Source: an uncultured Myxococcales bacterium
GTDB taxonomy: Bacteria; Myxococcota_A; UBA9042; CAIXZC01
Direction of reading: 5' to 3'
DNA length: 64,000 bases
Assembly (NCBI GenBank): GCA_964626565.1
Contig: CAZVFX010000003.1
Location: 45,906 to 109,905, forward strand
This document shows, in pieces, positions 2,512 to 40,141 of the stretch (position 1 is its first letter; each line of letters begins with the position of its first letter). The notes under the pieces are model-generated. The model worked only from the letters and a program-made list of their open reading frames with translations. It searched no databases and had not been told where the DNA came from. The translations under genes were made by a program, and so were the position numbers.

Positions 2512-2523
2512 TCGGAGGCACAC

Positions 2524-9564: not shown

Positions 9565-9567
9565 GGT

Positions 9568-10569: not shown

Positions 10570-10580
10570 GATAATCCCTC

Positions 10581-11126
10581 CTACACTAGAAAGAAGAGGT
10601 TGGGGTCCATGCCCGTTTCGGGATGGAGGGTTTTCACTCGTCGCGAGTGCGCCAGTTTGGACACCTCGCTGTCGGGGTCTGCCAGATCACCAAAGGTGAG
10701 GGCCCTGGTCGGACAAGTTTCCACGCAGGCGGGTAAGCCGCCCTTTTCTACCCGGTGGAGGCAGAAGGTGCACTTGTCCACGTACCCCTCGGGATGAACG
10801 AACCGTGAATCGTAGGGGCAGGCGGCCATGCACGCCTTACAGCCGCTGCACTTCCGGTGCGTTACCAGCACAGCCCCGCCGTCGGACTTGTGGCTGGCGC
10901 CGGTGGGGCAGGCCTGTACGCAACCGGGCTTGTCACAGTGATTGCAACGGGTAGAACGAATCTCCAGATTTATGTCCGGAAAATCCCCCTCTGCCTCCTC
11001 GACTATCCAATCCCTGTAGCACCCCAGAGGAACTGCATTTTCAGTCTTGCACGCGATGACGCAGGCGCTGCAACCGACGCAGCGTCTGGTGTCGACGGCC
11101 ATGGCGTATCGCTTTTGCTTTCCCAT
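10581..11126 (-). CDS. 4Fe-4S ferredoxin-type electron-transfer subunit (PsrB/PhsB/DmsB-like)
   Basis: Four CxxCxxCxxxCP clusters: RCVGCSACVIAC, CNHCDKPGCVQACP, CSGCKACMAACP and CTFCLHR...CVETCP. Confidence 0.85.
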   Translation of the reverse strand: MGKQKRYAMAVDTRRCVGCSACVIACKTENAVPLGCYRDWIVEEAEGDFPDINLEIRSTRCNHCDKPGCVQACPTGASHKSDGGAVLVTHRKCSGCKACMAACPYDSRFVHPEGYVDKCTFCLHRVEKGGLPACVETCPTRALTFGDLADPDSEVSKLAHSRRVKTLHPETGMDPNLFFLV

Positions 11127-11129
11127 GAT

Positions 11130-13340
11130 TTATGCCCTCTCCATGCGCACGAAGTTCACGTTCATGCCGGTCCCGCCCATAATCGGGTCCACCTTGAAGC
11201 GGGTAACGAGGTCGCTGTCGCTGGCGCCTTTCCCGTAGGCGTGTTTCAGTTGCTTCTGCTGCGTGCCCCAGCCGTGCACCATGTAGACGCAGTCCCGTCG
11301 GATGCGACGGGTGGCCCGCACTTTGATGGGCCCAGCCCTCGCATCATCCTGGTTCACAACCATTACCCGCTCGCCATTCTCGACGCCCGCCTCCTTGCAG
11401 ACGTCAACATTCACCCACAACTCGTTCTCCGGAAAAGCCTCGCACAACAACTTGTTGTTGACGGTGCGGCCGAACGAGTGAGTAGGCGCCCTTCCGAACA
11501 GCAGGCGGTACATGCCGGGAGGCGGTTCCTCGTGCGGCTCGAACTGAGGCATCGGGTCGAACCCTGCATCTTTCAGTTGTTGGGAAAACAACTCGATCTT
11601 GCCCGAAGGCGTATCAAACGTCAGCTCCAGCCCGTCCTCCTCGAACGCCGGCTCTTCTTTACCACGCAGTACACCGGTCTTTCGCAACTCTTCACAGTCG
11701 TAGCCCGCACTTTTGACTCGATGCATTGCGTACTCGACGCTATCCGCCCACGGGAAGTAGTCATCCAGACCGATACGATGCGCCACCTCCCTGGCGATCC
11801 ACCAGCCCGGACGGGAGTCGTACATGGGCTGGACCACCGGCTGCCGGATGGCCAGGTACGGGACCTTGTAGCTGGGAACGTGGATATCGTCACAGCGTTC
11901 AAGATATGTCGATTCGGGGAGCACCACATCGGACCAGCCGCAGATCTCGGCGGGAAGAACGTCCACCGTGACGATAAAATCCAGCTCCTGGATCGCTTTG
12001 TGCACCCGTGCTGCGTCGGGTAGTGATTTGACCAGGTTGGTGCCGTACACAAACCAGCCCTTGATGTCGTACTCGGCGGTGTCCGGAACACTGGCGTCAC
12101 ACAGACCCTGGGCCAACACTTCGTCGGCCAGGGGATAGCCGGAGCCCTTGGGCATGTCGGCTGGAGGGCTGGCCGGGGGAGAGTATTTTGTGTAGGGGTA
12201 CTTTGGTACATCGAGGCGTGAGGGGTAGTAGAAACCGCCTTTTCTACCCCACGCGCCCAGCAGCGCATTGAGCATCGCCTTGGCGCGTTCACGCTGCGCG
12301 TCGTCACCGTACCAGGTAGTGCGCCGTCCCGGATAGACCACCGATGCGGGCTTGAAACCCGCGATGAAGCGGGCAGTCTCCACGATAAGTTCCGGCCGGA
12401 TGGTGGTGTGGGTGTAGGCCCACTCCGGCGTCTTGTCCGACAGGTGTTTCTTTAGCTCGTCCAGACCCAATGCATGCTTCTCGAGGTAGTTGGCGTCGTA
12501 CAACCCCTCCTTCACGATAACGTGCATCCACGCCAACAGCAGCGCGATGTCGGTGCCGGGCTTAATGGGCAGCCAGTATTTCGCTTTGGAGGCTGCCACC
12601 GAGTGGCGGGGGTCCACCACCACCAGGCCCGCACCATTGCCCAGCGCCTCGGCGAATTCCTGCACCTGGGTGTTGTGCATGTTCTCGCCCAGGTGGGCGC
12701 CGATGAGAGTGATGCAGCGGCTGTTGGCCAGGTCCACACGCTCCGGAGAAGCCACTATGCCGCCGAAAGTAAGGTTGAAGCCCACCTCTCTAGGACCCCG
12801 GCACTGCGCATAAGAGGGCGCCGAGATGTTCGGCGACCCGTAGGACTTCATCAGGTGCTTGAACCAACTCCCGCCATAGCCGTGCAGGAAGAGGGCGAGG
12901 GCCTCGGGACCATGCTCGTCGCGGATCTTCAACATCTTGTCCGCCACCAGATCCAACGCCTCATCCCACTCTGCCTCCCTGAAGACCTGCTCGCCCCGCT
13001 TTGTCGAGGTGCGGATCAACGGCTTCTTCAGCCGGTCCGGATCGTAGAGAAGCCCGGTGCCGCCCGCACCGCGGGGGCACAGGCGCCCCCGTGATAGAGG
13101 ATGATCCGGATTGCCGGTGATTTTGGTCACCTTCCCCTCTTTCACGTGGGCCAGAACTCCGCACTTCCAAAAACAGAGCTCGCAGAAGGTCGGAACCACC
13201 CAGTCTCCTGCCGTTCCCGGGTCATGGATCGGGTCTCCGTCCAGCCCCCACCAACGCGTTACCAGTCCGCTGCCCGCAGCCGCAGCCACGGAGCCGGCCG
13301 TAGCGATCTTGATGAACTGCCGTCTGGTCAATCCGCTCAT
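11130..13340 (-). CDS. Molybdopterin (bis-MGD) oxidoreductase catalytic subunit with a Tat signal; PsrA/PhsA-like polysulfide/thiosulfate-type reductase
   Basis: Twin-arginine motif TRRQFIKIATAGS and an N-terminal CxxCxxxC FeS motif (CELCFWKCG). The 736-aa length suits Psr/Phs/Ttr/Arr-family enzymes; the substrate cannot be assigned from sequence. Confidence 0.8.
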   Translation of the reverse strand: MSGLTRRQFIKIATAGSVAAAAGSGLVTRWWGLDGDPIHDPGTAGDWVVPTFCELCFWKCGVLAHVKEGKVTKITGNPDHPLSRGRLCPRGAGGTGLLYDPDRLKKPLIRTSTKRGEQVFREAEWDEALDLVADKMLKIRDEHGPEALALFLHGYGGSWFKHLMKSYGSPNISAPSYAQCRGPREVGFNLTFGGIVASPERVDLANSRCITLIGAHLGENMHNTQVQEFAEALGNGAGLVVVDPRHSVAASKAKYWLPIKPGTDIALLLAWMHVIVKEGLYDANYLEKHALGLDELKKHLSDKTPEWAYTHTTIRPELIVETARFIAGFKPASVVYPGRRTTWYGDDAQRERAKAMLNALLGAWGRKGGFYYPSRLDVPKYPYTKYSPPASPPADMPKGSGYPLADEVLAQGLCDASVPDTAEYDIKGWFVYGTNLVKSLPDAARVHKAIQELDFIVTVDVLPAEICGWSDVVLPESTYLERCDDIHVPSYKVPYLAIRQPVVQPMYDSRPGWWIAREVAHRIGLDDYFPWADSVEYAMHRVKSAGYDCEELRKTGVLRGKEEPAFEEDGLELTFDTPSGKIELFSQQLKDAGFDPMPQFEPHEEPPPGMYRLLFGRAPTHSFGRTVNNKLLCEAFPENELWVNVDVCKEAGVENGERVMVVNQDDARAGPIKVRATRRIRRDCVYMVHGWGTQQKQLKHAYGKGASDSDLVTRFKVDPIMGGTGMNVNFVRMERA

Positions 13341-13344
13341 GGTT

Positions 13345-13650
13345 CTATCCCTCTTTTTTGCAATCCGTCACGCAAGCGATGAGGTTTCTAAGCCCCTGTT
13401 CCTTGATGGAATAAGTCGCGCGCCCGCCGGTACGGTCAACGTGGACCAGCCCCACCATCCTCAACACCGCAAGGTGCTGGGAAACAAGGCTCTGCCTGAC
13501 GTCGAGTCGCTGACAAAGCTGACTCACGGTCTGCGGGTCCTCGCAAAGTGCAGCGATACTTCTGAGCCGCAACGGGTGAGCGACCGCCTTCAACATCTCG
13601 GCCAACTGCTGAGCCCTTTCGAGGTCTTCAACTATGTTGCTCTTTGCCAT
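13345..13650 (-). CDS. ArsR/SmtB-family transcriptional regulator, first gene of the operon
   Basis: LAEMLKAVAHPLRLRSIAALCEDPQTVSQLCQRLDVRQSLVSQHLAVLRMVGLV is the ArsR HTH signature; a 4-nt gap separates it from psrA. Confidence 0.8.
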   Translation of the reverse strand: MAKSNIVEDLERAQQLAEMLKAVAHPLRLRSIAALCEDPQTVSQLCQRLDVRQSLVSQHLAVLRMVGLVHVDRTGGRATYSIKEQGLRNLIACVTDCKKEG

Positions 13651-14725: not shown

Positions 14726-14793
14726 TTTTCAATTCCCAATTCTCAATGAAAAGTTTCTTACCCTGGACCCTGACCCTGGACCCTGGACCCCTG
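14716..14793. repeat. Two adjacent 7-nt tandem repeat arrays: (CAATTNN)x5 at 14716-14750, spanning the TTG start and 5' leader of ORF 13736..14725, and (CCCTGGA)x5 at 14759-14793
   Basis: Read directly: caattgc caatttt caattcc caattct caatgaa ... ccctgga ccctga ccctgga ccctgga cccctg. Confidence 0.5.
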
Positions 14794-15961: not shown

Positions 15962-17146
15962 CTAGAGTATGCAGTTATACCCTCCGGCTCCGAAATTGGC
16001 GCCGAAGTCCCAATCACACTTGGTGAAACCGTTCTGTACGCAATCATAGCCGTACAAAATCCCTTGCTCGCAGAACCACCTTACGTCTCCGACGCACAAC
16101 CCGACGACGCCGTCGATCCAGGCACACTCTCCACCTTCCGCCGGCTTGCAGATCCCGCTGGCGCATCCCCATCCGGTGGGGCATACACCGCAGCTCCCCC
16201 AGCAGCCGTCGTCGCCGCACTCTTTGGCCGAACCGTCGTTGAACGTGCATTGGGGGTCGCAGTCGGTTTCAGGTACGCATTCGTACTTGCCGGTATCCTG
16301 GTTCCAGCCGCACATGTGGTCTTTAATCGACTTGCAGTTGGTAACTGTCAACTCAAGTTCAATGCATTCGGCGAGGTTGTACTTGTCGTCGCACCTGCCC
16401 TTGTAGTCCACGGTGCCGCACGGGTGCGGCTCGCATAGTCCTTCCTCGCTGCAGATTTCCCCGAACTGGCAGTTTCCACAGGAGTGGCCACAACCGTCGT
16501 CCCCACACTCCTTGCCCCCGCAATCGCCGTCACACGCCTCGCCGTAGCACATGCCATTGGGCGAACACGAGGTCCCGTCCTCGAGGCAGAACCCGCAGTA
16601 CCCTCCACACGCGTCGGGACCACATTCCTTCCACACCACATCGTTATCGACGGTGGTGGTGCACTCTTTCGGGCACACGCTGGCCTCACAAACTCCGTCG
16701 GCGCAGACGTATCCATACGCGCAATACCCGCAGATACCATCACAGCCGTCGGAGCCACACTCCTTGCCGGAGCAGTTCTTCATGCACGGGCCGACATCTT
16801 TGTCGGGCTTGGTGTCGATTTCGGGCTTCACTTCGGGTGCGGACTTGTCTTCGGCAACGTCCGGAATGGAGAAGTCGGCGTCCCCCACATCGGGCACAAT
16901 CACGGTTCCGTCGTCGGTGGTTTCGACATCCGTCGGGGAACCGGGCTTCTCACCGGAGTGGACCTCCTCAGGGCCTATGATGACAGTAAGGGTGTCATCA
17001 TCCTTGACGTCCACCAGAGGCATCTCACCGTCCGAGAAACCGGAAGGCGTCGTGGTCGTATCTGCAGAGCAGGCGGCAAGCCCAGCGGTGACAAGCAGCG
17101 CCATCAGCAGGCAGAATCTGTGGGTCATATCGTCTCTCCTACGCAC
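15962..17146 (-). CDS. Cysteine-rich secreted lipoprotein (394 aa), paralogue of ORF 14828..15937
   Basis: Signal LLMALLVTAGLAACSAD; a Thr/Asp-rich linker; the modules CSGKECGSDGCDGICGYC and CGGKECGDDGCGHSCGNC; a C-terminal domain shared with the downstream paralogue. Confidence 0.75.
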   Translation of the reverse strand: MRRRDDMTHRFCLLMALLVTAGLAACSADTTTTPSGFSDGEMPLVDVKDDDTLTVIIGPEEVHSGEKPGSPTDVETTDDGTVIVPDVGDADFSIPDVAEDKSAPEVKPEIDTKPDKDVGPCMKNCSGKECGSDGCDGICGYCAYGYVCADGVCEASVCPKECTTTVDNDVVWKECGPDACGGYCGFCLEDGTSCSPNGMCYGEACDGDCGGKECGDDGCGHSCGNCQFGEICSEEGLCEPHPCGTVDYKGRCDDKYNLAECIELELTVTNCKSIKDHMCGWNQDTGKYECVPETDCDPQCTFNDGSAKECGDDGCWGSCGVCPTGWGCASGICKPAEGGECAWIDGVVGLCVGDVRWFCEQGILYGYDCVQNGFTKCDWDFGANFGAGGYNCIL

Positions 17147-17295
17147 CGACTTTCAGTAGTATACAGTAGTTGCCGTTGTTGCTCAACAACGCCTTTGGCC
17201 GTAGATATCCCAAGCCAATGAGCAGCTCCGGAGGAGCAAGAGCCAATAGGCCACATCGCTAGCTGTGGGAAACCAGTTGCATCGGCCGTTCCATT

Positions 17296-17370
17296 CCTCC
17301 CCGGGCTTCCGGCCGGGGCTAGTGGCTAGCGTGCCCTGCGGGGCCTGGTTCGGAGGTTGGAGATCGAGAG
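17296..17370 (-). promoter_or_regulatory. Copy 1 of a conserved ~75-nt GC-rich structured intergenic element, about 25 nt after the giant-gene stop and about 170 nt before the next gene start
   Basis: About 85% identical to 23279..23356. It contains a hairpin GCCC-GCA-GGGC (GCCCC-CGT-GGGGC in copy 2, a compensatory change) and a CCCCGG...CCGGGG stem. Confidence 0.5.
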
Positions 17371-17395
17371 GAATGCAGACGGAATTTGATGGCGG

Positions 17396-20300
17396 CTAGT
17401 CAGGTTGGCAGGAGCCGGGGTTGCCCGGTTCGCAGTGAGCGTCGGGATCGCATTGGGAATCGTAGGTACACATGTTGGCGCAAGCGGGGGGCAACTGGTC
17501 CACCTGGCCGTTGCAGTGAACCGCCTTGTAGAGGCCGCAGTCGTCGCTTTCCACCGATTGATCGCAGCCCGCATCGTCGCCGACGATCACAGTGCCGCAA
17601 ACCGACAGCTCGCACGTGGCGTCCTGGCGTTCCCCTTCACACAAGGGGGGAGAGATGCACTCCGACGGGCTGGCGTATTCGGCCGGACAATCCCCGGCGA
17701 CAAAACAGCAGTCCCCCGTCTCACAACAGAAGCCGTTTTGACAGTAGCCGGAAGTGCAATCGCCGTTTTCATCGCAAGTTTTTCCATCAGCGAGGTCAGC
17801 CAGGCAGTGGCCACCATCGCAGTGGGCTAAGGCGGTGCACTCCTCGTCTACCAGGCAGGCGACAGGGCAGGAAGGCGGTTGCTGGTCGCCGTCCCCGGAG
17901 CAGTAGACCGGATCGTAGAAGCCACAATCCAGGGCCGGGGACTGGCCGTCACACGCGGAGTCGTCGGCCACCTCCAGGCTGACGCAAACGTTGGCCTGGC
18001 AGGCCGCTTCGAGCCTGGAACCCTGGCAGGTTTGCGGATCCTGGCAGGTCGCCGATTCCGAGTACTCTCCGGGACAGTGGTTCGCCAACGCGCAGCAATC
18101 TCCCGAGGAGCAGCAGAATCCGTTCTGACAATGGAAGGACTGACAGTCGGAGTCCTCGTCGCAGGCGGCGCCATCACCCAAATCGGCAAGGCAGGCGCCA
18201 TCGCAATGAGCGCTCGCGTCGCACTCGTCGTCACCTAGGCAAACCGTGGGGCAAAGCGGTTGCTCCTGTTGCACACTGCCGTTGCACACCACCGAAAGAA
18301 ACGGCCCGCAGTCATGGGCTTCGGTCCACCAGCCACACCCGGAATCGTCTTCCGCTTCGAGGCTGCCGCATACGAAGTTGTCACAGGTTGCATCCACGCG
18401 GTGCCCCTGGCAGCCGGCCGCGTCGTCACACGCCGGGTACTTCTTGTATTGCCCGGGGCAGCCCGCGGCCGAAAGGCAGCAATCACCGCTATCGCAGCAG
18501 ATTGCGTGGTTACAGTGGCCGGAGTTGCAGTCGGAGTCCTCGTTGCACGACGCTCCGTCCGGAAGGTCGCCGAGGCACACCCCGTCACAATGGGCGCCCG
18601 GGTCACACTCGTCATCCGCCAGGCACTCCAGCGGGCACAACGGGGAGTCCTGGTCTTCTTCCCCCGTGCAGAAAAGGTCAAGGTACGCGCCGCATCCCGC
18701 CGCGTTCACTTGCTGCGTGCACGCGGAGTCATCTGCTACGATATCGGACCCACATACGAAGTCGGCGCACGTCGCGTCCACCCGCTGCCCCTGACAATCT
18801 GCGGGCCACAGGCAACCGGGAAGTGAGGAGTAGTCCGGCGGGCACTCAGCGGCATCGATACAGCAGTCGCCGCTCTGGCAGCAAATACCTGCCGAGCAGT
18901 GTCCGGACGTGCAGTCGGAGTCCTCGTCACACTCCAGGCCGTCGCCGACATCCGGAACGCAGATGTTCTGCCCGGGTCCCGGGTCGCAATGGGCGCCGGG
19001 ATCGCAATGACCGTCGGCCTGGCATTCTTCCGGACAGGCCGGACCGGGCTGCGAAACCTCACCGGTGCAGAGCACGGGCAGAAACAAACCGCAATCGTCT
19101 GCCGTCACATCTTCGGTACAGCCCGAGTCGTCGTCGACGGCCAGTTCCCCGCACTGGTGGTTCGTACAAACCGCATCGACCCGCTGCCCCTGGCACGCGG
19201 CAGGCTCTTCGCACTGAGGCGAGGCGGAGAACTCCGGTGGACAGTTCGAAGCCGTTGCGCAACAGGCGCCTTGCGCACAGCAATAGCCGTTACCGCAGTG
19301 GCCACCGGCGCAGTCGGAATCCTCGTTGCACTCCAGCCCGTCGTCAATGTCCGGCTCACAGACACCGTCGCAATGAGCCTGGTCGTCGCACTCGGAATCC
19401 CACTGGCAGGCCTCGGGGCAACCCGGGGCAGGTTGATACTTGGCGCCGGTGCAATAGACATCGGCAAACAACCCGCAATCCCCGGCCAGCACCAGAGGAC
19501 CGCACGCACTGTCGTCAAGCACCAGGTCAGACACGCAAATGAAGTTGCTGCATCCGCGGTCCTGCCGGGTGCCCTGGCAGCTCTCAGGGGTCACGCACAC
19601 CGGCGGGCTGTCGTACTCCGGCGGACAGTGGTAGTTGAACTGGCAGCAATCGCCAGAGGCACAGCAGAAACCGTTCTGGCAGTGTCCGGAGATGCAATCG
19701 CTCGCCTCGTCGCAGGAAAGACCATCGGTGAGGTCGGGCTTGCAAATGGAATCGCAGTGATAGTCGGGCGCGCACTGCGAGTCCTCACCGCACGTTTGCG
19801 AACATTCGGGCTCCGGTTGTGCCGGCTCGCCGGTGCAATGGAGGTCTGGAAACGGTCCGCAGTCGTTGGCCAGCAGGGCAATATCGCACCCGGAATCGTC
19901 GTCAACGTCGGCGCTGCCGCACCGGCTATCTTCACACACCGCGTCGACCCTGTGTCCCTGGCACGAAGCAACATCGTCGCACACCGCAGCGGCCCAGAAC
20001 TCATCAGGGCAGTCCACGGCCAGTGAGCAGCAGACATCCGAGGCGCAGCAGTAGCCGTTGGCGCAATAGCCGGATTCGCAGTCAGAGGCTTCGTCGCACT
20101 CGGCGCCGTCCTGAGCGTCCGGAAGGCACGTTTCCCCCCCCTCCAGGCCGGCAGGATCGCAATGTGCTCCGGGGTCGCATTCTTCGTCTCCGACGCAGTT
20201 GGTGGGGCACTCAGGCTTCTGCTGGTCCTGGAACGCAGCGCACATGACCGGGAGGAACAGACCACAATCGTCAACCACGTTGAGGATATTGCAAGCGCTG

Positions 20301-23227
20301 TCGTCGTCGAAGGTCACGCTCTCGCAGGTTGCCTGGGTGCACGCGGCGTCAATACGAAACCCCTGACAGGAGCCGGGGTCGGCACATTTGGGAGGTGTGG
20401 AGAAGGAGTCGGGACAGCTCGACGCCTGGTTGCAGCAGACGCCTTCGCTACAGCAGTATCCGTTGTCGCAATGGCCGGAAATGCAGTCGCTGGGCTCGTC
20501 GCACACGGTGCCGTCCACCTGGTCCGCAACACAGGTCTTGGCTCCGGGGCCCACGGGTGGATCGCAGTGAAATCCCGGGGAGCAGATATCGTCGTCGGAG
20601 CAGTTCAGTGGACAGGCCGGTGCGGGCTGATACTCTTGTCCGGAGCAGTAGCTGGGCAAGTAACTCCCGCACTCCAGCGCCAGCACGTCGGGGCCGCATC
20701 CCGTGTCATCCCCGAGGGTCGCGGTTGAGCCGCACTGGAAACCCTCGCAAAACGCGTCGATGCGGATCCCCTGGCAATCGTCCGGGATCACGCAAAGTGG
20801 AGCCGTTGCGTATTCCGCCGGGCAATCCGCGACCTCGACACAACAGTCTCCGGACCCGCAGCAAAAACCGTTCTGGCAATGTCCCGACATGCAGTCACCA
20901 TCCTCATCACAGGAATATCCGTCGGGAAGGTCCGGCTTGCAAACGTGCTGCTCAGCGTCCGCGGAAGGGTCGCAGTGGGCATCCGGGCTGCAGTCGTCGT
21001 CCACATCACACCCTGCAGAGCATGGAGCAGACAACTGAGCCGGCTGACCGGTGCAATATTGCGAAGGATAAGGAGCGCAGTCTTTCGCCAGCATTCCGGC
21101 ACTACATCCGGAGTCATCGTCGATGGGGCCGATAGAACCGCAGATGTACATTTCGCAGGTGGCATCCATGCGATGGCCCTGACAGGAAAAGGACTCCTGG
21201 CACGTGGGCGTAAGAGAGTATTTGTCCGGGCACTGGTCAGCCTTGAGGCAGCAATCGCCGAAAGCACAGCATACCCCTGCGCTGCAATGGTCGGAGAGGC
21301 AGTCGGTGGCCACGTCGCACGGGCCGCCATCATCCTGGCGCGGTTCGCACAGCCCCTCCTTGCAGGTAAACCCCGCTTCACAGTCGCTCTGATCAATGCA
21401 TGAGGCCGGGCACAGGGGCGGAGCCTGAGTCTCGTCACCGTTGCAGAATAGCTCACCATACGGCCCACAATCCACCGCCGGCTCTTCAGCGACACAGGCG
21501 CTGTCGTCGGGTATGCCGGGAAGAGCAGAGCAGCTATTCTCGACACACGCTGCGTCGGTGCGTGTACCCTGGCAGAGTCCGGGCTCGTCGCAGGCGGCTG
21601 GCGACGAGAAAAGCTCGGCGCAATCGTCGTCATCGTCGCAGCACAACCCGTCGAGGCAACAGAGACCTCCCTCACAGTGGGTCGAAAGACAATCGCTGTC
21701 TTCGTCGCAGGAGAAGCCATCTTCGAGGTCCGGCTTGCAAACGTAGTCGCAGTGAAAACCCGGGTCGCAGTCGAGGTCGTCAGCGCAGCCGTTGGAACAG
21801 GCCGGAAGAGCCTGCTTCTCCAGACCGTTGCAGTGAACCGGGGGATAGGCCCCGCACTCGTTGGCGAGGGTCTGTTCGTCGCACCCGGAGTCGTCGGGTT
21901 GGACCGGTCCGGTCTGGCACATGTTGTTGACGCACTGAGCATCCTGCCGGTGCCCCTGACACACTTCCGCATCGTCGCACACCGGCTGGAGCCAATGGTC
22001 ATCCGGGCACAGGGCCGCGTCAAAACAGCAGTCTCCCGCCTGGCAACAGACGTTGTGAGCACAGTGGCCGGAGTTGCATTGAGGGTCGGTGTCGCAAACC
22101 GCACCTTCGGGGAGGGCTGGCACACACTGACCATCCTGGTTACAAAACGAGCCACCTGCGCAGCCGCCGTCGTCTTCGCAATCGGTAAGGCAGGCGCCGA
22201 ACGCGCCGATCTTGTCACAAGCGAACAGCCCGCAAGAAGCGGTGCCGGCTTCGACGCACTGCCCATCAACACACGCCTCGCCGCCAACCATGTAGAACTC
22301 CACCCCCTCCTGAAGGCAGAAAGGAGGGGCACAATTGGAGGCTGCCTCATCCACGAGGCCATCGCAGTCATCGTCCACCCCGTTGCAAACTTCGAGGGAG
22401 GCGACGTTAAACGGCTCACAAGCCCCGATGCCGGTGGCCAGGCAGGGGCGAAACCCGGGGCACGTCCCGAACTCGTTGCTCGTTTCGCAAGGCAGTTCCT
22501 TGCCTTCCTCACCGGGCAGGCAAAGGCAGTTGCCGGAAGGCGGTGCGCACAGACCCTGGATTGCCCCTTCCTGGTGGCAGTCAAGGCCGTTGGCGCAGGC
22601 ACCCTCATCGTCGCACTGGTGCAAGAGCACGTGAGCCCCGTCCAGTTGAGCGCACAAGACATTGTCGAACGGGGGCGGCAGGGCCGGGTCGCAAGGCTCG
22701 CAGAAACCCACCAGAGAGGGCACGCACAAGTCCTCATCGTCGAGGGACCAGCACTGCCAATCCGGGGGACAGACCTCATCGCAGATGGTGGTGCACACCC
22801 CACCGAGGGGGGTAGCGAGGCATTGCCCCGGATCGCAATCTTCGTCGGATTCGCACAGTTCACCAAAGGGGAACTCGACTGCCACTTCCGTCTCGGCCTC
22901 GCCTTCCGCATCGGCTTCGGTTTCCGAAACGTCTCCGGCATCAGCGGAACCGGCTTCGGCGTCGGACAAGTCCGGAGCGATCAGATCGACCTCGCCGGAC
23001 ACATCGTACAACTCCGGCCCGACATCGACCGTCTCCGGGGCAACCGCGCCGTCCGGTTTCAGGTCCGTCGCCAACTCGGATTCGACATCGGCCAAGGCCA
23101 ACTCCCCGCCCGCATCGAGCAGGTCGATTCCGCCGCCGACCGAAGGTGTCGAACAATGGGTGAGAGAGGTGAGGCAGAGAACAAGGCTAATCAATCGCAG
23201 GCGCATGGGCGCTCCTTTCGCGCACAA
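17396..23227 (-). CDS. Giant (about 1940 aa) secreted cysteine-rich protein G2 with about 12 tandem ~105-aa Cys repeats; the probable start is the internal M (MRLRLISLVLCLTSLTHC)
   Basis: It has the conserved N-terminal Cys module (ELCESDEDCDPGQC...) plus a MopE-like motif CNGVDDDCDGLVDEA. About 12 repeats follow, each with DCxSGHCxNGxCC...CQGxRxDAxC...DDSxC...CPxxCxxDxxCDPGAHCD. Confidence 0.8.
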   Translation of the reverse strand: MCAKGAPMRLRLISLVLCLTSLTHCSTPSVGGGIDLLDAGGELALADVESELATDLKPDGAVAPETVDVGPELYDVSGEVDLIAPDLSDAEAGSADAGDVSETEADAEGEAETEVAVEFPFGELCESDEDCDPGQCLATPLGGVCTTICDEVCPPDWQCWSLDDEDLCVPSLVGFCEPCDPALPPPFDNVLCAQLDGAHVLLHQCDDEGACANGLDCHQEGAIQGLCAPPSGNCLCLPGEEGKELPCETSNEFGTCPGFRPCLATGIGACEPFNVASLEVCNGVDDDCDGLVDEAASNCAPPFCLQEGVEFYMVGGEACVDGQCVEAGTASCGLFACDKIGAFGACLTDCEDDGGCAGGSFCNQDGQCVPALPEGAVCDTDPQCNSGHCAHNVCCQAGDCCFDAALCPDDHWLQPVCDDAEVCQGHRQDAQCVNNMCQTGPVQPDDSGCDEQTLANECGAYPPVHCNGLEKQALPACSNGCADDLDCDPGFHCDYVCKPDLEDGFSCDEDSDCLSTHCEGGLCCLDGLCCDDDDDCAELFSSPAACDEPGLCQGTRTDAACVENSCSALPGIPDDSACVAEEPAVDCGPYGELFCNGDETQAPPLCPASCIDQSDCEAGFTCKEGLCEPRQDDGGPCDVATDCLSDHCSAGVCCAFGDCCLKADQCPDKYSLTPTCQESFSCQGHRMDATCEMYICGSIGPIDDDSGCSAGMLAKDCAPYPSQYCTGQPAQLSAPCSAGCDVDDDCSPDAHCDPSADAEQHVCKPDLPDGYSCDEDGDCMSGHCQNGFCCGSGDCCVEVADCPAEYATAPLCVIPDDCQGIRIDAFCEGFQCGSTATLGDDTGCGPDVLALECGSYLPSYCSGQEYQPAPACPLNCSDDDICSPGFHCDPPVGPGAKTCVADQVDGTVCDEPSDCISGHCDNGYCCSEGVCCNQASSCPDSFSTPPKCADPGSCQGFRIDAACTQATCESVTFDDDSACNILNVVDDCGLFLPVMCAAFQDQQKPECPTNCVGDEECDPGAHCDPAGLEGGETCLPDAQDGAECDEASDCESGYCANGYCCASDVCCSLAVDCPDEFWAAAVCDDVASCQGHRVDAVCEDSRCGSADVDDDSGCDIALLANDCGPFPDLHCTGEPAQPEPECSQTCGEDSQCAPDYHCDSICKPDLTDGLSCDEASDCISGHCQNGFCCASGDCCQFNYHCPPEYDSPPVCVTPESCQGTRQDRGCSNFICVSDLVLDDSACGPLVLAGDCGLFADVYCTGAKYQPAPGCPEACQWDSECDDQAHCDGVCEPDIDDGLECNEDSDCAGGHCGNGYCCAQGACCATASNCPPEFSASPQCEEPAACQGQRVDAVCTNHQCGELAVDDDSGCTEDVTADDCGLFLPVLCTGEVSQPGPACPEECQADGHCDPGAHCDPGPGQNICVPDVGDGLECDEDSDCTSGHCSAGICCQSGDCCIDAAECPPDYSSLPGCLWPADCQGQRVDATCADFVCGSDIVADDSACTQQVNAAGCGAYLDLFCTGEEDQDSPLCPLECLADDECDPGAHCDGVCLGDLPDGASCNEDSDCNSGHCNHAICCDSGDCCLSAAGCPGQYKKYPACDDAAGCQGHRVDATCDNFVCGSLEAEDDSGCGWWTEAHDCGPFLSVVCNGSVQQEQPLCPTVCLGDDECDASAHCDGACLADLGDGAACDEDSDCQSFHCQNGFCCSSGDCCALANHCPGEYSESATCQDPQTCQGSRLEAACQANVCVSLEVADDSACDGQSPALDCGFYDPVYCSGDGDQQPPSCPVACLVDEECTALAHCDGGHCLADLADGKTCDENGDCTSGYCQNGFCCETGDCCFVAGDCPAEYASPSECISPPLCEGERQDATCELSVCGTVIVGDDAGCDQSVESDDCGLYKAVHCNGQVDQLPPACANMCTYDSQCDPDAHCEPGNPGSCQPD

Positions 23228-23278
23228 ACCAAACCAGAGAGTATTATCCTATCGGAAGATGCGGAGAGCAAATTAGTC

Positions 23279-23356
23279 CCTCCCCGGGCTAACGGCCGGA
23301 GCTACTGGCTTGCGTGCCCCACGGGGGCCTGATTCGGATTTTGGAGTTCTAGAAGA
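23279..23356 (-). promoter_or_regulatory. Copy 2 of the conserved structured intergenic element, upstream of giant gene G2
   Basis: CCTCCCCGGGCTAACGGCCGGAGCTACTGGCTTGCGTGCCCCACGGGGGCCTGATTCGGATTTTGGAG aligns with copy 1. Confidence 0.5.
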
Positions 23357-24841
23357 TCAGCAGTCAGCCGGGCAGCTCGCCATGGTTTCCGTCGCGCCGC
23401 AGACGCCGTCGCCGCAGGGGCCGCAATCATCCGCACAGTTGGCCGGCGTCTCGGGGCCGTCGCAAATGGCATCGCCGCAGGAAGCTGTGCAGTCCTGGGC
23501 ACAGGATGCGAGGGTCTCGGAGAGAGCACATATCCCGTCCCCGCACGACGCACAATCCAGGGGGCAACTGTTGGCAGTCTCGCCCGGATTGCATGCACCA
23601 TCCCCGCACGGAGGCGTACAGTCAATCGGGCAGGTACCCACGGTTTCCCCTGCGTCACATGCGCCGTTAGCGCAGGTATCCTCACAATCCCAGGGGCATG
23701 CCACGGAGTCTTCCGTCAGGTTACACACGCCGTCGCCACAATCGCCACAATCGGCGGGGCAGGCTGCTGCGTTCTCATCGGCCTGGCAGATGGAATCACC
23801 GCAGAAAGGCATGCAGTCGAGGGGACAGGTGCCGGGTCCATCCTCGTGGACCCCGCATATGCCGTCGCCGCAAGGGCCGCAGTCGTGGGGACACAACGGC
23901 ACCGATTCGGTGAGCTCACATTTGCCGTTTCCGCAGACGCCGGCACAGCCGGGCACCTCCGCGCCGGGCACACAAACACCCACCTCGCAGTGGTCTCCGG
24001 CAGTACACTGATTGCCGTCGTCGCAGGGCACACCATTGAGGGGTTGGTGAACACAACCGCCGAAGGCATCACAAGTGTCGGAGGTGCACGCCTCACCATC
24101 ATCGCAGTCGATGGTGGTCCCGGCAACGCACTGCCCGTTGATACAACTATCGCCGGTAGTGCACGGGTCCCCGTCCTCACATTGGCCTTCCAGAACGGTG
24201 TGCATGCAACCTTCCACCGGGTCACAATAGTCATCTGTGCACCAGTTGTTGTCGTCACAGGTGTTGGCCTGGCCGCCAAGGCACTCCCCCGCTTCGCACT
24301 GCTCGCCCACGGTGCACGGGTCCCCATCCTCGCACAAGTTGGTGTTGGGAGGGTTGATGCACCCTTCATCGGGAGCACAAAGGTCGTCGGTGCAGGGGTT
24401 GTCGTCCGCGCAATCAAGAGGCTCGGTGCCCGGCTTGCAGGCCCCTTGTTCGCAGAAGTCGCCGTTGGTACAGGGGTTGCCGTCGTCGCACTCACCTTCC
24501 GACAGGCTGAACGCACACTCTCCGGAAGGGGTGCAATACCCTTCGGTGCACGGGTTATCATCGCCACAGCCGGTGTCCACGACACACGTGCCGCCACAAC
24601 CGTCGTGGTCGCCGCAGCTCTTATCTTCACAGTCGGGAACACACTCACCCTCGTCGGGTTTCACGTCGGCGCCGCCCGTGTCACTGCCCCCACCGGTGTC
24701 AACCGTAACATCATCACCGGCAACTTCCGTCGCAACTTCCGGTGTGAAGCCGGCGTCGTCATCGCCGCCACCGTCACCTCCGCCGCAGGCAGAAAGGGAA
24801 AGAACGAGTGCTGCGCTCCACCAGATGACTGCTCCTCGCAT
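23357..24841 (-). CDS. Cysteine-rich secreted lipoprotein (494 aa) with CxDGNPCTxDxC repeats followed by CGDGxC...E...CPxDC repeats
   Basis: Signal AALVLSLSACGGGDG; about 8 CDDGNPCT-type repeats and about 8 CGDGICG...CP(L/A)DC repeats. Same architecture as ORF 32835..34469. Confidence 0.75.
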   Translation of the reverse strand: MRGAVIWWSAALVLSLSACGGGDGGGDDDAGFTPEVATEVAGDDVTVDTGGGSDTGGADVKPDEGECVPDCEDKSCGDHDGCGGTCVVDTGCGDDNPCTEGYCTPSGECAFSLSEGECDDGNPCTNGDFCEQGACKPGTEPLDCADDNPCTDDLCAPDEGCINPPNTNLCEDGDPCTVGEQCEAGECLGGQANTCDDNNWCTDDYCDPVEGCMHTVLEGQCEDGDPCTTGDSCINGQCVAGTTIDCDDGEACTSDTCDAFGGCVHQPLNGVPCDDGNQCTAGDHCEVGVCVPGAEVPGCAGVCGNGKCELTESVPLCPHDCGPCGDGICGVHEDGPGTCPLDCMPFCGDSICQADENAAACPADCGDCGDGVCNLTEDSVACPWDCEDTCANGACDAGETVGTCPIDCTPPCGDGACNPGETANSCPLDCASCGDGICALSETLASCAQDCTASCGDAICDGPETPANCADDCGPCGDGVCGATETMASCPADC

Positions 24842-24866
24842 GGCAATCCTCCCGTTTGATCTTTGC

Positions 24867-27800
24867 CTATCTTACAAAAATTTCGAGGTCGTTGAACAGA
24901 ACATATTCAGGGCTCGATTGATCTTCGACGCCCCACCGTAGGATATTGGACTCCGCCACCGGGGTGTTGAAGGTGTAATACTTGGACGTGCCGCCGGAAT
25001 TCCAGTCCCCGCCCCACTGCCCCCCGGTCTTGAGCACCGTTCCGGGAGTGCCGAACATAACATACCCGTTGGAGCCGTTGCCCGTCTTTCCCCAGGAGCC
25101 GGCGTTCCAGTTGTCGTCGTGATGGATGCCGCTTCCGCCGTAACCGCGCCAGCTCCCCCTCACTTCCGAAAAGGTGAACATAGTGTCGATTTCGAAGTAC
25201 ACCAGCTTGTCCCCGCCGCCGTTGTTGCTGCCGATGGCGAAAGAAGGGTTGTCCCCGTCGGTGACCACCGTATAGCCCGGTCCCACGATCACCTTGGCCT
25301 CATGTGGGAAATGCTGATAGCTGTTCACTCCGCCCACGTCCCCGGTGCTGGAAATCAGGGTCCACCCTCCCCCGTTGGTATCCATGTCGCAATAAACCTC
25401 GAAGGGATCGACACCGCCGATGCCGTCCGGATCCAGGGTGTACAACCCGCTCTCAGCGTTGGGGCTCTCGTCCAGGAAGTCTTTGCAGGACGAGATGGTG
25501 CAGCCGTTGTCCGCGATACCGCTGCAATCGTCGTCCAGGCCGTTGTCGCAGATCTCCTCGGCCTCATGGTTAATGTCAGGGTCGGTTGGAGCACAGTCGG
25601 TGATGTCGGGATCGTTGTCGTTGTCGTCATCCGGATCCACGCAGTCGGCCAGTCCGTCGGCGTCGCTGTCCGGGAAACCGTCGTCGATGCCGCCGTTGCA
25701 GTTGTTGTCCAGACCGTCGCATTCCTCAGGCTGCGAACCTTCCATCGGATCACATTCCACCTCCTGCCCTTCTGCACAAAGAGGCGTGGAGTGGAGGCAT
25801 TCTCCAAGGCCGCAGGAGAGCATCCCCAGCCCCTCATCAAGGAGGCCGTCACAGTCGTTGTCAACCCCGTCACATTCCTCTGCCACCGCCCCTTCCTTTG
25901 GATCACACACCTGGGGGACCCCGTCCGCACAGTTCTGGACGATGTGGGTGCATACTCCCTGGCCGCACGAAGTCGACCCGAGTCCGTCATCCTCCAGACC
26001 GTTGCAGTCGTTGTCCAGGCCGTCGCAAATCTCCGGGGCAACGCCCAGGAAGGGGTCGCACACCGCGATCTTTCCATCAACGCAATAATCCTGCTCGTGA
26101 AAACACTCGCCTTTGCCGCACTGCACCGAACCGAGGTCTTCGTCCACCGCGTCATCGCAATCGTTGTCCTGGCCGTCACAGACCTCGGCCGCCGCCCCTT
26201 CCATGGGATTGCACACCTGCGGCACACCGCCCACGCACACCGGCACCGTGTTCTCGCACGCGCCCAGACCGCAGGTAATCTGGCCCAGATTCTCATCCAC
26301 CTGTCCGTCGCAATCGTTGTCGATTCCGTCGCATATTTCTACACCAACACCCTCCTCCGCGTTGCAGTCTTGTGGGATGCCACCGACGCAATTCTGAACG
26401 GTGTGAAGGCAAACGCCGAGCCCGCAGGTGGTGGTGCCCAGGTCTTCATCGACCAGGCCGTCGCAGTCGTTGTCGTTTCCATCACATTTTTCGAGCTCAA
26501 CACCCTCCATCGCCTCGCAGACTTGAGGGATACCACCGACGCAATTGTCAACGGTATGATTGCACACACCCAGGCCGCAGGTGGTGGTGCCCAAATCCTC
26601 ATCCACACTATCATCGCAGTCGTTGTCAAGGCCGTCGCACACTTCCATGGCCGCGGGGTTGATGGTCGCATCGAGGGGAGCGCAGTCCGCGTCGTCGGAA
26701 TGACCGTCGTTGTCGTCATCAAGATCGGTACAGTCTTTGAGCCCATCCAGGTCGCTATCGTTAAAACCCTCGTCGATGAGGCCGTTGCAGTTGTTGTCTA
26801 CGCCGTCGCAAACCTCCTGGGCGCCGGGATTCACGTTGGGGTCGAGCGGAGCGCAGTCTTCTGCGTCGGGGGTGCCGTCGCCGTCCTTGTCCCCCTCACA
26901 CGCATCCCCCACGCCGTCATTGTCGCTATCCTCCTGCCCCGGGTTCTCTACACCAACACAATTGTCCGCGCTGTCTTCCACGCCGTCTCCGTCCAGGTCG
27001 TCGTCGCACGCGTCGCCCAGACCATCCCCGTCGATGTCCGACTGTTGCGTGTTTTTTACGCCAACACAGTTGTCCGCGCTATCGGGTATTGCATCTCCGT
27101 CAGCGTCGGGGTCGCAAGCATCGCCCAGGCCATCCTCATCCAGGTCCTCCTGGCCCGGATTCTCCACGCCAACACAATTATCCGCACTGTCGGCGACGCC
27201 GTCGTCGTCGGCGTCGTCGTCCACGCAGTCAGCCACACCATCTCCATCGATATCCGGGAATCCGTCGTCCACATCCCCGTCACAATCGTTGTCCAGGCCG
27301 TCGCAGATTTCGGCCGCACCAGGGAACACCGACGCATCAGTCGGCGCACAGTCGGCGCCATCAACGACGCCATCGTTGTCGTCATCTTCGTCCACGCAGT
27401 CCTTCCACCCGTCCGCGTCGGTGTCGGTGGACCCTTCATCCACTATGAAGTTGCAGTTGTTGTCCTTGCCGTCGCACAACTCCTCGGCGCCGGGATGGAT
27501 GTCCTGGTCGAAAGGAGCACAGTCCTCCGCATCCGAGGTCTGGTCGTTGTCGTCGTCCAGGTCGCAGACGTCGCCAAAATTGTCCAGGTCATTGTCCTCC
27601 TGCCCCGGGTTGTTCACGCCAACACAGTTATCCGCGCTGTCGACGATGCCATCTCCATCTTTGTCGGTCTCCATGCAGTCAGCGATCCCATCGTCGTCGG
27701 TATCTTCGAAACCCTCGTCGGTGGCGCCGTCGCAATCGTTGTCCTCGCCGTCGCAGCTTTCCGCGTGCGCCTCTTCTCCTTCGCACACCAGTTTGCCCTG

Positions 27801-28682
27801 GTCGCACGCATACTCTCCGGCACAGGTGCCGAACTCGTTGGCCACCAGGCAGGCGTCGCCCCCGGTGTCCTCGTCAATTTCGCCGTCGCAGTCGTCGTCC
27901 TGACCGTTACACTCGTCCACTTCCGGCTCAGGTGCCGAACAAGGGGTCAGGCCATCCGCCATGCACTGGCGGTCGCCGAAACATCTACCCCACTCGTTTT
28001 CCGCGAAACAATCAGTGGCCGCACCTTCATCAATGTACCACTGGTTGCACTCACATTCTCCCTGGGACCGCGTGCACTGAGTCACCGCTCCGCCGGCCAC
28101 ATCTTTGCCATCGCCACAGTAGTAGCCTGCCGGGCAATCTTCGTCATCGTCACAATTGGCGCCACAGAAGTTTCCACCTTCCCCGTAATCTACGCAGGAC
28201 TGCCCGGCGTCGACGCCGTTGGTCCAACATTCGTCGTTCTGCGTACACGGCCGGCACAGGTCAACCATGGTAGGTACGCAAATGAACACCTGGTCCGGCA
28301 TGCTCGGAGGGTGCAGGAAACAACTCCAGTCGAAGGGGCACTCTTCCACGCAGGAGATGGTACACTGCATCCCGTCCGCGGTCTGGATACAGAATCCCGA
28401 GTCGCAGTCAGCCGCTCCCTCGCACGGATACCCCGCCGCGCCTGGCTCAGGCCCGCACGCATCCCCGCACACGTCCGCCAACGCTTCTCCGAAGTCCCAA
28501 CCGTCGGTTTTCGCGTCTTCGTCCAGCGACTCAGGCTCCACCCCGGCGTCGTCGGCCACCTCAGCCGGTGCAAAGCCGTCCCCGGCATCGACACCACCAA
28601 GGTCCTCAGACACCGTAACCGCACCGTCGCCACAAGCCATCGACAAGACAACCGCTGCAAAAAGAACAATCCCTATTCTCAT
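24867..28682 (-). CDS. Giant (about 1270 aa) secreted lipoprotein G3 with TSP3 repeats, MopE-like repeats and a C-terminal fibrinogen-like domain; the start is the internal M (MRIGIVLFAAVVLSMACGDG)
   Basis: The N-terminal module is nearly identical to G1 (GYPCEGAADCDSGFCIQTADGMQCTISCVEECPFDW...). It carries TSP3 DxDxDGxxDxxDNC repeats and six CGLGxC...CDGxDNDCDGxxDE repeats. The C-terminus CKDFLDESPNAESGLYTLDPDGIGGVDPFEVYCDMDTNGGGWTLI matches the fibrinogen C-terminal domain signature. Confidence 0.8.
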   Translation of the reverse strand: MRIGIVLFAAVVLSMACGDGAVTVSEDLGGVDAGDGFAPAEVADDAGVEPESLDEDAKTDGWDFGEALADVCGDACGPEPGAAGYPCEGAADCDSGFCIQTADGMQCTISCVEECPFDWSCFLHPPSMPDQVFICVPTMVDLCRPCTQNDECWTNGVDAGQSCVDYGEGGNFCGANCDDDEDCPAGYYCGDGKDVAGGAVTQCTRSQGECECNQWYIDEGAATDCFAENEWGRCFGDRQCMADGLTPCSAPEPEVDECNGQDDDCDGEIDEDTGGDACLVANEFGTCAGEYACDQGKLVCEGEEAHAESCDGEDNDCDGATDEGFEDTDDDGIADCMETDKDGDGIVDSADNCVGVNNPGQEDNDLDNFGDVCDLDDDNDQTSDAEDCAPFDQDIHPGAEELCDGKDNNCNFIVDEGSTDTDADGWKDCVDEDDDNDGVVDGADCAPTDASVFPGAAEICDGLDNDCDGDVDDGFPDIDGDGVADCVDDDADDDGVADSADNCVGVENPGQEDLDEDGLGDACDPDADGDAIPDSADNCVGVKNTQQSDIDGDGLGDACDDDLDGDGVEDSADNCVGVENPGQEDSDNDGVGDACEGDKDGDGTPDAEDCAPLDPNVNPGAQEVCDGVDNNCNGLIDEGFNDSDLDGLKDCTDLDDDNDGHSDDADCAPLDATINPAAMEVCDGLDNDCDDSVDEDLGTTTCGLGVCNHTVDNCVGGIPQVCEAMEGVELEKCDGNDNDCDGLVDEDLGTTTCGLGVCLHTVQNCVGGIPQDCNAEEGVGVEICDGIDNDCDGQVDENLGQITCGLGACENTVPVCVGGVPQVCNPMEGAAAEVCDGQDNDCDDAVDEDLGSVQCGKGECFHEQDYCVDGKIAVCDPFLGVAPEICDGLDNDCNGLEDDGLGSTSCGQGVCTHIVQNCADGVPQVCDPKEGAVAEECDGVDNDCDGLLDEGLGMLSCGLGECLHSTPLCAEGQEVECDPMEGSQPEECDGLDNNCNGGIDDGFPDSDADGLADCVDPDDDNDNDPDITDCAPTDPDINHEAEEICDNGLDDDCSGIADNGCTISSCKDFLDESPNAESGLYTLDPDGIGGVDPFEVYCDMDTNGGGWTLISSTGDVGGVNSYQHFPHEAKVIVGPGYTVVTDGDNPSFAIGSNNGGGDKLVYFEIDTMFTFSEVRGSWRGYGGSGIHHDDNWNAGSWGKTGNGSNGYVMFGTPGTVLKTGGQWGGDWNSGGTSKYYTFNTPVAESNILRWGVEDQSSPEYVLFNDLEIFVR

Positions 28683-28897
28683 CCTCTCCCCCTGCTTCAC
28701 CCTCGAACGCCAGCATGCGCCACATGTTCGCGCACGCAGCATGCGTTGCCAAATTTTCTGTTGGGCCCGGGGCTCACTGTTTCCGTTGCAATCCGCGTGC
28801 AAGGCCACCTATTCTGGTAGCGTCGCATTTCAGGAAGAGGTTGAGGGAAGACCGAGAAGGAACAGTTGTAGGGCCGCCGGACAAGCAAGGAGTCTCA

Positions 28898-40138: not shown

Positions 40139-40141
40139 TGC

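Follow-up and report, generated by a model that had tools for sequence, protein, structure and literature searches.

Within the 64-kb window (the whole stretch of DNA that was analysed), a hairpin-bearing sequence recurs three times, and we tentatively favor the reading that it is a small, lineage-specific extragenic palindromic repeat of the REP/REPIN type, probably acting as a hairpin at the 3′ end of transcripts from upstream. The three copies all lie within 6.2 kb, in two of the 12 spacers of at least 50 nt found between window positions 284 and 56669, namely 17129–17395 and 23207–23356, and thus all of them are intergenic:

17296–17372, minus strand: copy A (covariance-model score 109.7 bits)
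23279–23356, minus strand: copy B, a singlet (110.5 bits)
17202–17270, plus strand: copy C′, a degenerate inverted copy, about 60% identical, absent from the preliminary description

The likeness of A and B, with both on the minus strand, had been reported from a first reading of the DNA and is confirmed here, although the figure given then (85% over about 75 nt) becomes 64 identical columns of 78 (82%), with a single 1-nt gap. Their local alignment scores 97, against a mean of 17.5 for shuffled sequences, a score reached by none of 2000 shuffles, and a 26-nt degenerate pattern finds only A and B in the window, even with three mismatches allowed (0.00 sites expected). Past the unit, homology is not significant toward the downstream genes (p = 0.13) and is marginal into the upstream coding ends (p = 0.045), both of which are Cys-rich coding sequence. 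The homology between A and B is therefore that of a discrete repeated unit with non-homologous flanks. The preliminary description had presented it as conservation standing out against divergent flanking genes, but those flanks are simply not homologous, so that we are dealing with a repeated unit and not with a conserved island. The unit measures about 78 nt and comprises two hairpins, here called H1 and H3, together with a 30-nt unstructured 5′ part.

The genes around the copies, g2, g1 and g0, are all Cys-rich (15, 14 and 12% Cys, respectively), as had been stated, and their nearest named homologs belong to deltaproteobacterial/Myxococcota-like MAGs. Copy B begins at the very next base after the stop codon of g2 (23357–23359), while copy A begins 23 nt past that of g1 (17396–17398). 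The giant gene g1 (5.8 kb) shares 51% identity, from end to end, with a 2164-aa protein of the related locus L117, and it forms with g0 a conserved pair, with orthologous loci at 50–58% protein identity; for g2 no close homologs were found, the best matches being repeat-driven at about 45% identity. At its right end, the window stops inside a further gene, which is more than 2600 codons long and continues beyond it.

Copy C′ came to light with a structure-aware model, but a sequence-only local alignment with the core of B also scores 28 (p = 0.006, 2000 dinucleotide shuffles). Its segment 17225–17270 is the best non-self covariance-model match in the 64-kb window (11.1 bits), with an E-value of 0.66 over the whole window and of 0.003 locally. 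It stands tail to tail with A across a spacer of 25 nt, and the H3 hairpins of the two (A on the minus strand, C′ on the plus strand) are inverted and 29 nt apart. Judged by sequence, C′ looks like a decayed copy, and A and C′ look like an inverted doublet next to the singlet B. No long joint hairpin of A and C′ forms, and the doublet folds no better than shuffles, either as RNA or as DNA.

Both hairpins proposed in the preliminary description are found in A and B, and counterparts of each occur in C′:

23316–23328, minus strand: H1 of copy B, GCCCC-CGU-GGGGC, 5 bp (−9.3 kcal/mol), part of the minimum-free-energy fold of B
17333–17344, minus strand: H1 of copy A, GCCC-CGCA-GGGC, 4 bp (−6.8 kcal/mol)
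17225–17237, plus strand: H1 of copy C′, GCUCC-GGA-GGAGC, 5 bp
23282–23305, minus strand: GTAG followed by H3 of copy B, CUCCGG C C-GUUA-G C CCGGGG (−10.1 kcal/mol)
17299–17322, minus strand: CTAG followed by H3 of copy A, CCCCGG C C-GGAA-G C CCGGGG (−13.1 kcal/mol)
17246–17269, plus strand: ATAG followed by H3 of copy C′, CCACA U C-GCUA-G C UGUGG

H3 consists of a 6-bp stem plus a C-G closing pair and is kept in all three copies. Its loop is always GNNA (GGAA in A, GUUA in B, GCUA in C′), with C-G as its closing pair and a pyrimidine-C mismatch next to it, C·C in A and B and U·C in C′. In the tetranucleotide before it, TAG is invariant and only the first base changes (G in B, C in A, A in C′). 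Between A and B, the H1 difference that had been described as a compensatory change is really a 1-nt insertion with substitutions that add one pair in B, and not covariation. Changes on both sides of a pair do appear in C′: one pair of H1 differs from that of B in this way (C-G to U-A), and three pairs of H3 differ from those of A and B, all still paired. These four double changes were equalled by 3 of 500 shuffles, and 94% of the stem cells are paired across the three copies, against only 36–51% in slid controls, although both pair counts are biased because C′ was first detected by a structure-aware model.

The term structured, used for the element in the preliminary description, rests on the conserved hairpins and the patterns of substitution, and folding energy gives it no support: neither A nor B folds better than dinucleotide shuffles (z of −0.64 and +1.18 on the minus strand, and of −1.02 and −0.52 on the plus strand). 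These energies are what one would expect if the element were a functionless remnant of local duplication or gene conversion, with hairpins that are a by-product of GC-rich sequence, and the small number of copies, all of them local, the decay of C′ and the lack of the element in relatives agree with such an origin. However, the differences between A and B fall in loops or are wobble-compatible, the four double changes in C′ preserve pairing, and the flanks share no homology, so that a simple segmental duplication fails to explain the sharp boundaries. We consider this explanation distinctly unlikely.

Other symmetries are less evenly shared by the copies. Copy A has an 8-bp terminal inverted repeat (CATTCCTC/GAGGAATG), of which copy B keeps six of the eight pairs, C9-G79 included, a pair that belongs both to this stem and to H3; two of these pairs are wobbles and one is altered on both sides. 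Copy A also holds a perfect palindrome, GCTAG-CCA-CTAGC. Such a palindrome, together with the −35-like hexamer that follows the end of copy B after 7 nt, might suggest a DNA operator through which a nearby LysR or HTH protein, or some other regulator, would co-regulate g1 and g0. In B, however, the palindrome is broken (3 of 5 pairs), copy A lies about 110 nt from the g0 promoter, and a conserved unit of 80 nt with covarying stems would be atypical of an operator, all of which makes this the most improbable of the possibilities we weighed.

REPs are defined by a 5′ GT(A/G)G head followed by a palindrome, an extragenic location and frequent inverted doublets (PMC3686654), and in style the present element comes near to those of Stenotrophomonas, for example GGTAGTGCCGGCCGCTGGCCGGCA (PMC3686654). 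Its copies are extragenic, soon after stop codons, and restricted to this lineage; H3 supplies in all three a GC-rich, imperfect palindrome of 20 nt directly behind a TAG-containing tetranucleotide, which in copy B is GTAG; and there is one inverted doublet with a short spacer as well as a singlet. In contrast, the unit, at about 78 nt, exceeds a classical REP in length and includes a second hairpin, H1; the canonical GTAG head is present in one copy of three, the other heads being CTAG and ATAG; and the doublet partner C′ is only about 60% identical to A and forms no long hairpin with it. REP/REPIN families also have tens to hundreds of copies per genome and are mobilized by a single-copy RAYT (a Y1 transposase) that is flanked by REPs and whose gene could lie anywhere in the genome. 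Here, three copies are known from 71.5 kb of genome, the annotated parts of the window contain neither a RAYT nor any other transposase, and no target-site duplication is seen in the sequence flanking the element.

Further copies were looked for in several ways. Within the window, a pattern allowing three mismatches, nhmmer with --max and an unfiltered covariance model return A, B and C′ only. The remainder of the genome sequence that was read (71.5 kb in all), including 7.5 kb of the source contig to the left of the window, contains no further copy. The covariance-model search that had been recommended added the degenerate C′ in the window but no copy in related loci, where neither nhmmer (L117 to L124) nor the covariance model (the same loci plus L177, about 125 kb) found anything beyond chance. 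Exact sub-pattern scans of larger collections gave 107 loci among GTDB genome contigs, all matching the pattern alone, zero and then 52 chance loci among JGI metagenome contigs, and zero loci among viral contigs in each of three scans, with no copy in any of them. These collection scans need exact sub-patterns, and the metagenome scans missed the window's own JGI source contig, so that they say nothing on this genome. Another kind of observation does hint at further copies elsewhere: the contigs of four Logan assemblies (k = 31) are all interrupted at 23311, within copy B, and a fifth contig begins at 23335, which fits an exact 35-mer, TGGCTTGCGTGCCCCACGGGGGCCTGATTCGGATT (23306–23340), common to another locus. 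No strain SNPs that would account for the break occur within the element.

Comparison with the orthologous loci indicates when the element may have arrived. It is absent from L117, L119, L122 and L124. In L117 and L119, the spacer ahead of g0 is 82–85 nt long and lacks the element, whereas here it is 267 nt, and the 171 nt of A, C′ and the spacer between them (17202–17372) account for nearly all of the excess. Two promoter-like sites, both outside the repeat, complete the picture:

17158–17186, minus strand: sigma-70-like promoter of g0, TTGAGC-17-TATACT, 9 of 12 matches
23243–23271, minus strand: weak promoter-like site ahead of g1, TTGCTC-17-GATAAT, recognized by eye and below the scan threshold

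The g0 promoter is conserved in three further lineages (TTGACC...TATACT in L117, TTGTCA...TATACT in L119 and TTGAGC...TATACT in L122) and lies downstream of copy A, about 110 nt from it to the −35 hexamer, while copy B is followed after 7 nt by the −35-like hexamer of the weak g1 site. Since the spacers of relatives lack the element and this conserved promoter is downstream of A, the element is best described as a lineage-specific insertion and not as a 5′-UTR leader.

A cis-regulatory 5′-UTR RNA had been one of the three identities first proposed, and these comparisons give it no support. Such an RNA would lie between the transcription start and the regulated start codon, at a conserved position, and would be conserved in orthologs or belong to an Rfam family, and the element shows neither property. 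It is true that A and B, the two strong copies, precede genes for Cys-rich lipoproteins on the gene-sense strand, that the U·G wobble in H3 of B pairs solely on that (minus) strand, and that the hairpin loop sequence is conserved, as would suit a leader or intercistronic RNA controlling g1 and g0 through, for instance, attenuation, antitermination or processing. Nevertheless, the downstream ATG lies 72 nt from B but 167 nt from A, C′ is inverted, and Rfam has no match to the whole window at gathering scores, so that, with the conserved promoter downstream of A and the empty orthologous loci, control by a leader RNA seems highly improbable. Searching both spacers against Rfam at E-values of up to 10 gave chance-level matches only (E of at least 0.18, at most 16 bits), such as Acido-Lenti-1 (12.8 bits, where the gathering score is 37) and CRISPR-DR9 (14 bits); all of these fell in copy A, and B had none. 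A search for tRNA and tmRNA was likewise empty. A previously undescribed, protein-bound RNA module, in which the covarying stem, the C-GNNA-G loop and the NTAG tetranucleotide would serve to process, stabilize or anti-terminate the messages of giant Cys-rich surface proteins, and in which the inverted copy would be a duplication accident, is likewise very unlikely in our estimation.

The second proposed identity, a terminator-promoter cassette, was half right at most: the hairpins do sit at gene 3′ ends, but no U-tract follows them, and the conserved unit does not include the promoter-like hexamers. In this respect, the element resembles intrinsic (Rho-independent) terminators, which are also GC-rich sense-strand stem-loops downstream of stop codons, with a U-rich tract starting 0–2 nt behind the hairpin, and differs from them in its two separate hairpins within a 78-nt unit, its inverted copy nearby and its tails, AGGAAUGG in copy A and AGGGACUAAUUUGC in copy B, neither of which is U-rich; no terminator-like site was found in 16900–17600 or 23000–23600. 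One can still imagine a non-mobile terminator or insulator module that was locally duplicated and selected for ending the transcripts of long Cys-rich genes before the next promoter. The copies are known solely from the two spacers flanking g1, with a stop codon on one side and a promoter-like site on the other, their hairpins are conserved, and GC-rich hairpins without a U-tract occur at other gene ends in the window (6864–6887 and 54016–54029). This proposal is nonetheless rather doubtful, given the missing U-tract behind either hairpin and the empty terminator scan, the relatives that do without any such module in the same spacer, the inverted decayed copy beside A, which would be superfluous for a terminator, and the Logan contig breaks, which suggest copies elsewhere.

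Several other classes were considered and set aside. An integron attC site would have R″/R′ core sites (RYYYAAC ... GTTRRRY), a long imperfect palindrome and an array beside an intI gene. Here, inspection reveals no GTTRRRY core, the sequence folds no better than shuffles on either strand, the supposed cassette would have to be a 5.8-kb gene that has a conserved ortholog, and the annotation includes no integrase. A MITE would have terminal inverted repeats common to its copies as well as target-site duplications, but copy B retains just part of the repeat seen in A, and no flanking duplication is seen. Inspection also disposes of a sigma-54 promoter (GGGCACGC-N-AGCC), in which GG and GC would be 3 nt too close on either strand, while the resemblance to an ECF-type promoter (GAAC-N16/17-CGC) is loose, and the 1-nt indel and non-periodic mismatches argue against a coding or peptide origin. 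ERIC/IRU, Correia, RUP and BOX elements are about 70–150 nt long, intergenic and co-transcribed, contain internal hairpins, can end or stabilize transcripts, and are each restricted to one lineage. Our element is similar in length, position, internal hairpins and lineage restriction, but it lacks convincing shared terminal inverted repeats and target-site duplications, and it has no known sequence similarity to them.

Among the three identities first proposed, a REP-like element thus remains the best fit, because the unit is discrete and extragenic, is absent from the spacers of relatives, occurs in both orientations, and contains GC-rich palindromes, with a GTAG head in one copy. The U·G wobble in H3 of B, which pairs on the gene-sense strand alone, and the GC-rich hairpins without a U-tract at other gene ends in the window also count in favor of this fit. 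Under the REP-like reading, a non-autonomous element would have been duplicated or transposed into place once this lineage had diverged from the relatives known so far. On the minus strand, the messages of g2 and g1 would carry it at their 3′ ends, and because of this position its hairpins probably act as transcript-end or stabilizer structures, a role known for REP sequences in enterobacteria. They would in this way separate g2 and g1 from the g1 and g0 promoters just downstream.

The element opens no new mechanism, and it looks like an ordinary hairpin repeat rather than a new regulatory RNA. In practice, it can serve to mark transcript boundaries near very long adhesin-like genes and to seed a genome-wide search for repeats and RAYTs. 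To our knowledge, REP-type repeats are little described in deltaproteobacterial/Myxococcota-like bacteria. If the REP-like reading is right, it would flag repeat-induced assembly breaks in the population, and a family of palindromic extragenic repeats would be added to an uncultured lineage of this kind.

The window has a G+C content of 61.6%, and its contig, which comes from an uncultured bacterium, is present in several metagenome assemblies; for instance, ENA scaffold_718 (80.9 kb) and JGI Ga0105013_1000068 (156 kb) show 100% identity to the window across the overlap. The closest named homologs of its genes belong to Deltaproteobacteria/Myxococcota MAGs. The element lies in the spacers on either side of g1, the giant member of a run of consecutive Cys-rich genes:

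24867-28808, minus strand: g3, with MopE, TSP3 and fibrinogen-C repeats
23357-24841, minus strand: g2, 494 aa, 15% Cys, with Dicty_CTDC repeats
g2-g1 spacer: 150 nt
17396-23206, minus strand: g1, 1936 aa, 14% Cys
g1-g0 spacer: 267 nt
15962-17128, minus strand: g0, 388 aa, 12% Cys, with a lipoprotein-like N-terminus

Very large secreted Cys-rich repeat proteins are unusually dense in this DNA (982-6765, 15962-28808, 32835-40684, 47146-54007 and 56128-64000), carrying MopE, TSP3, Dicty_CTDC, fibrinogen-C and Lcl_C domains; they jointly span well over half of the window, and one such open frame of more than 2600 codons runs off the right window end. Adjoining the cluster, at 7814-13650 (minus strand), is a polysulfide- or thiosulfate-reductase-like molybdopterin oxidoreductase/4Fe-4S/NrfD operon with two Sulf_transp genes and an HTH_20 regulator, and this set is likewise linked to the g0 homolog of L124, a related locus. 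An imperfect heptamer microsatellite, (GGGTCCA)n, occupies 14760-14790 (minus strand) in the spacer between a 369-aa gene and a tocopherol-cyclase-like gene, and L183, a contig from the Logan metagenome assemblies, ends within it at 14761.

The two look-alike copies, A (17296-17372) and B (23279-23356), both on the minus strand, were found where the preliminary description had placed them, soon after the upstream stop: B begins at the base right after the g2 stop and A 23 nt past that of g1. Their identity is indeed high, although it comes to 82% (64 identical positions in an alignment of 78 columns, including a single 1-nt gap) rather than about 85% over about 75 nt. The local alignment score of 97 compares with a mean of 17.5 for shuffled sequences, and a 26-nt degenerate pattern matches at A and B only, with 0.00 matches expected. 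This homology ends at the unit edges: toward the downstream genes, extension gives p 0.13, and into the ends of the two upstream coding sequences, both of them Cys-rich, p 0.045.

Each copy contains both of the hairpins described earlier, namely H1 (GCCC-CGCA-GGGC in A, GCCCC-CGU-GGGGC in B; -6.8 and -9.3 kcal/mol) and H3 (CCCCGG/CUCCGG, C, C-GNNA-G, C, CCGGGG; -13.1 in A and -10.1 kcal/mol in B), while on neither strand do the whole elements A and B fold better than dinucleotide-shuffled sequences. The change in H1 that had been taken as compensatory is really an insertion plus substitutions that make the stem one pair longer, and is not covariation. Differences between A and B within the hairpins fall in loops or are wobble-compatible; for example, B has U in place of C at one H3 position, which makes U.G on the minus strand and C.A on the plus strand.

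A third copy is also present. An unfiltered run over the whole window of a covariance model built on the two copies and both hairpins, the kind of search proposed earlier, returned A, B and one weak match at 17225-17270 (plus strand; 11.1 bits, E 0.66), the best non-self match in the 64 kb, 25 nt from copy A. On sequence alone this decayed copy, C', is confirmed: core positions 5-76 of B align to 17202-17270, on the plus strand of the remaining spacer around A, with p 0.006 (2000 dinucleotide shuffles). C' has about 60% identity, lies inverted and tail to tail with A, and retains both hairpins with other stem sequences (H1 GCUCC-GGA-GGAGC; H3 CCACA, U, C-GCUA-G, C, UGUGG). With the three copies aligned, 94% of stem cells are paired, falling to 36-51% with slid partners, and four pairs show two-sided changes, equalled by 3 of 500 shuffles, although these counts are biased toward structure because the model that first detected C' takes structure into account. 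The H3 register of C' is the same in the ungapped sequence-only alignment. H3 keeps a constant GNNA loop, a C-G closing pair and an adjacent pyrimidine-C mismatch (C.C in A and B, U.C in C'), and is preceded by GTAG in B, CTAG in A and ATAG in C'. The element is thus slightly richer than first noted, with three copies rather than two.

Homologs of g0 show 44-64% identity, and comparison of the g0 locus across four lineages (L117, L119, L122 and L124) revealed no element by nhmmer or covariance model. In L117, the gene upstream of g0 is a g1 ortholog (51% identity over its full length) behind a spacer of 82 nt; the spacer is 85 nt in L119 and 254 nt in L122, where the gene upstream is unrelated. 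Almost all of the extra length of the g1-g0 spacer relative to these loci corresponds to A, 25 nt and C' (171 nt), which, together with the absence from relatives, indicates a lineage-specific insertion in a conserved gene pair. A promoter-like site, TTGnnn-17-(G)TATACT, is conserved some 35 nt ahead of the g0 start codon in four lineages, between which the g0 proteins share only 50-58% identity:

Window 17158-17186, minus strand: g0 promoter-like site
L117 7700-7735: g0 promoter-like site
L119 9935-9965: g0 promoter-like site
L122 9955-9985: g0 promoter-like site

A GTATACT -10-like motif also lies ahead of the Cys-rich gene at 982 (about 955-965). Given the conserved position of the g0 promoter, copy A lies upstream of it and outside the g0 leader. 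A leader RNA, one of three identities considered previously, or an intercistronic regulatory RNA is therefore unlikely, the more so as the distance to the start codon varies, one copy is inverted and orthologous loci lack the element. Ahead of g1, inspection by eye shows a weak TTGCTC-17-GATAAT site, 7 nt beyond the end of copy B. A DNA operator is an unlikely reading. The attC, MITE, sigma-54 and coding explanations were checked and rejected.

No further copies were found in the window or in 7.5 kb past its left end. When GTDB species genomes, JGI metagenomes and viral contigs were scanned for exact patterns, all matches were chance ones that did not extend past the pattern itself; these scans are weak, since they require exact sub-patterns and those of metagenomes missed the window's own JGI contig, a failed positive control. 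In Logan (k=31), four contigs from four runs all end at 23311, inside copy B, and a contig from one of these runs begins at 23335, an overlap of 25 nt. A de Bruijn graph breaks in this way at an exact 35-nt repeat, and the pattern fits, as an indirect hint of more copies, an exact 35-mer (23306-23340) shared with another, unseen locus in those metagenomes; copy A differs from B within it. Within the element, the assembled strain variants show no SNP. Nearly all differences between the window and an assembly of a different sample (L002/L182) lie at 26363-26521 in the g3 repeat array, where about 25-30 mismatches are clustered along with two 1-nt indels. This suggests that repeat units have been shuffled between strains; in this comparison the elements themselves do not vary.

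By definition, REPs have a GT(A/G)G head followed by a palindrome, lie between genes and often form inverted doublets (PMC3686654). Among the identities proposed earlier, a REP/REPIN-like extragenic palindromic repeat fits best, because the element is a discrete extragenic unit just after stop codons, has GC-rich palindromes with covarying stems and a GTAG-type head in its best copy, occurs as one singlet and one inverted doublet, and is absent from relatives. REP membership is tentative, however, since two of its heads are off-consensus, its unit is longer than that of a classical REP, its doublet partner is decayed and the annotated parts of the window contain no transposase. Most probably the element is a small palindromic repeat of an ordinary intergenic kind, confined to this lineage. 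It is also plausible that local duplication produced a non-mobile terminator or insulator module, or left a neutral remnant.

Strong GC-rich hairpins without U-tracts also occur 3′ of the stops of two other Cys-rich genes, ATCCAGCCGAGCGCTCGGCTGGAT (6864-6887, plus strand) and GGGCGCGAACGCCC (54016-54029, plus strand). Neither spacer contains a canonical U-tract terminator, which counts against the terminator-promoter cassette suggested at the outset. The g2 and g1 messages both have the element at their end, and its hairpins therefore probably have a transcript-end or stabilizing role, in which they would end or stabilize these transcripts before the next promoter. In this organism, gene ends may usually be signalled by a GC-rich hairpin without a U-tract.
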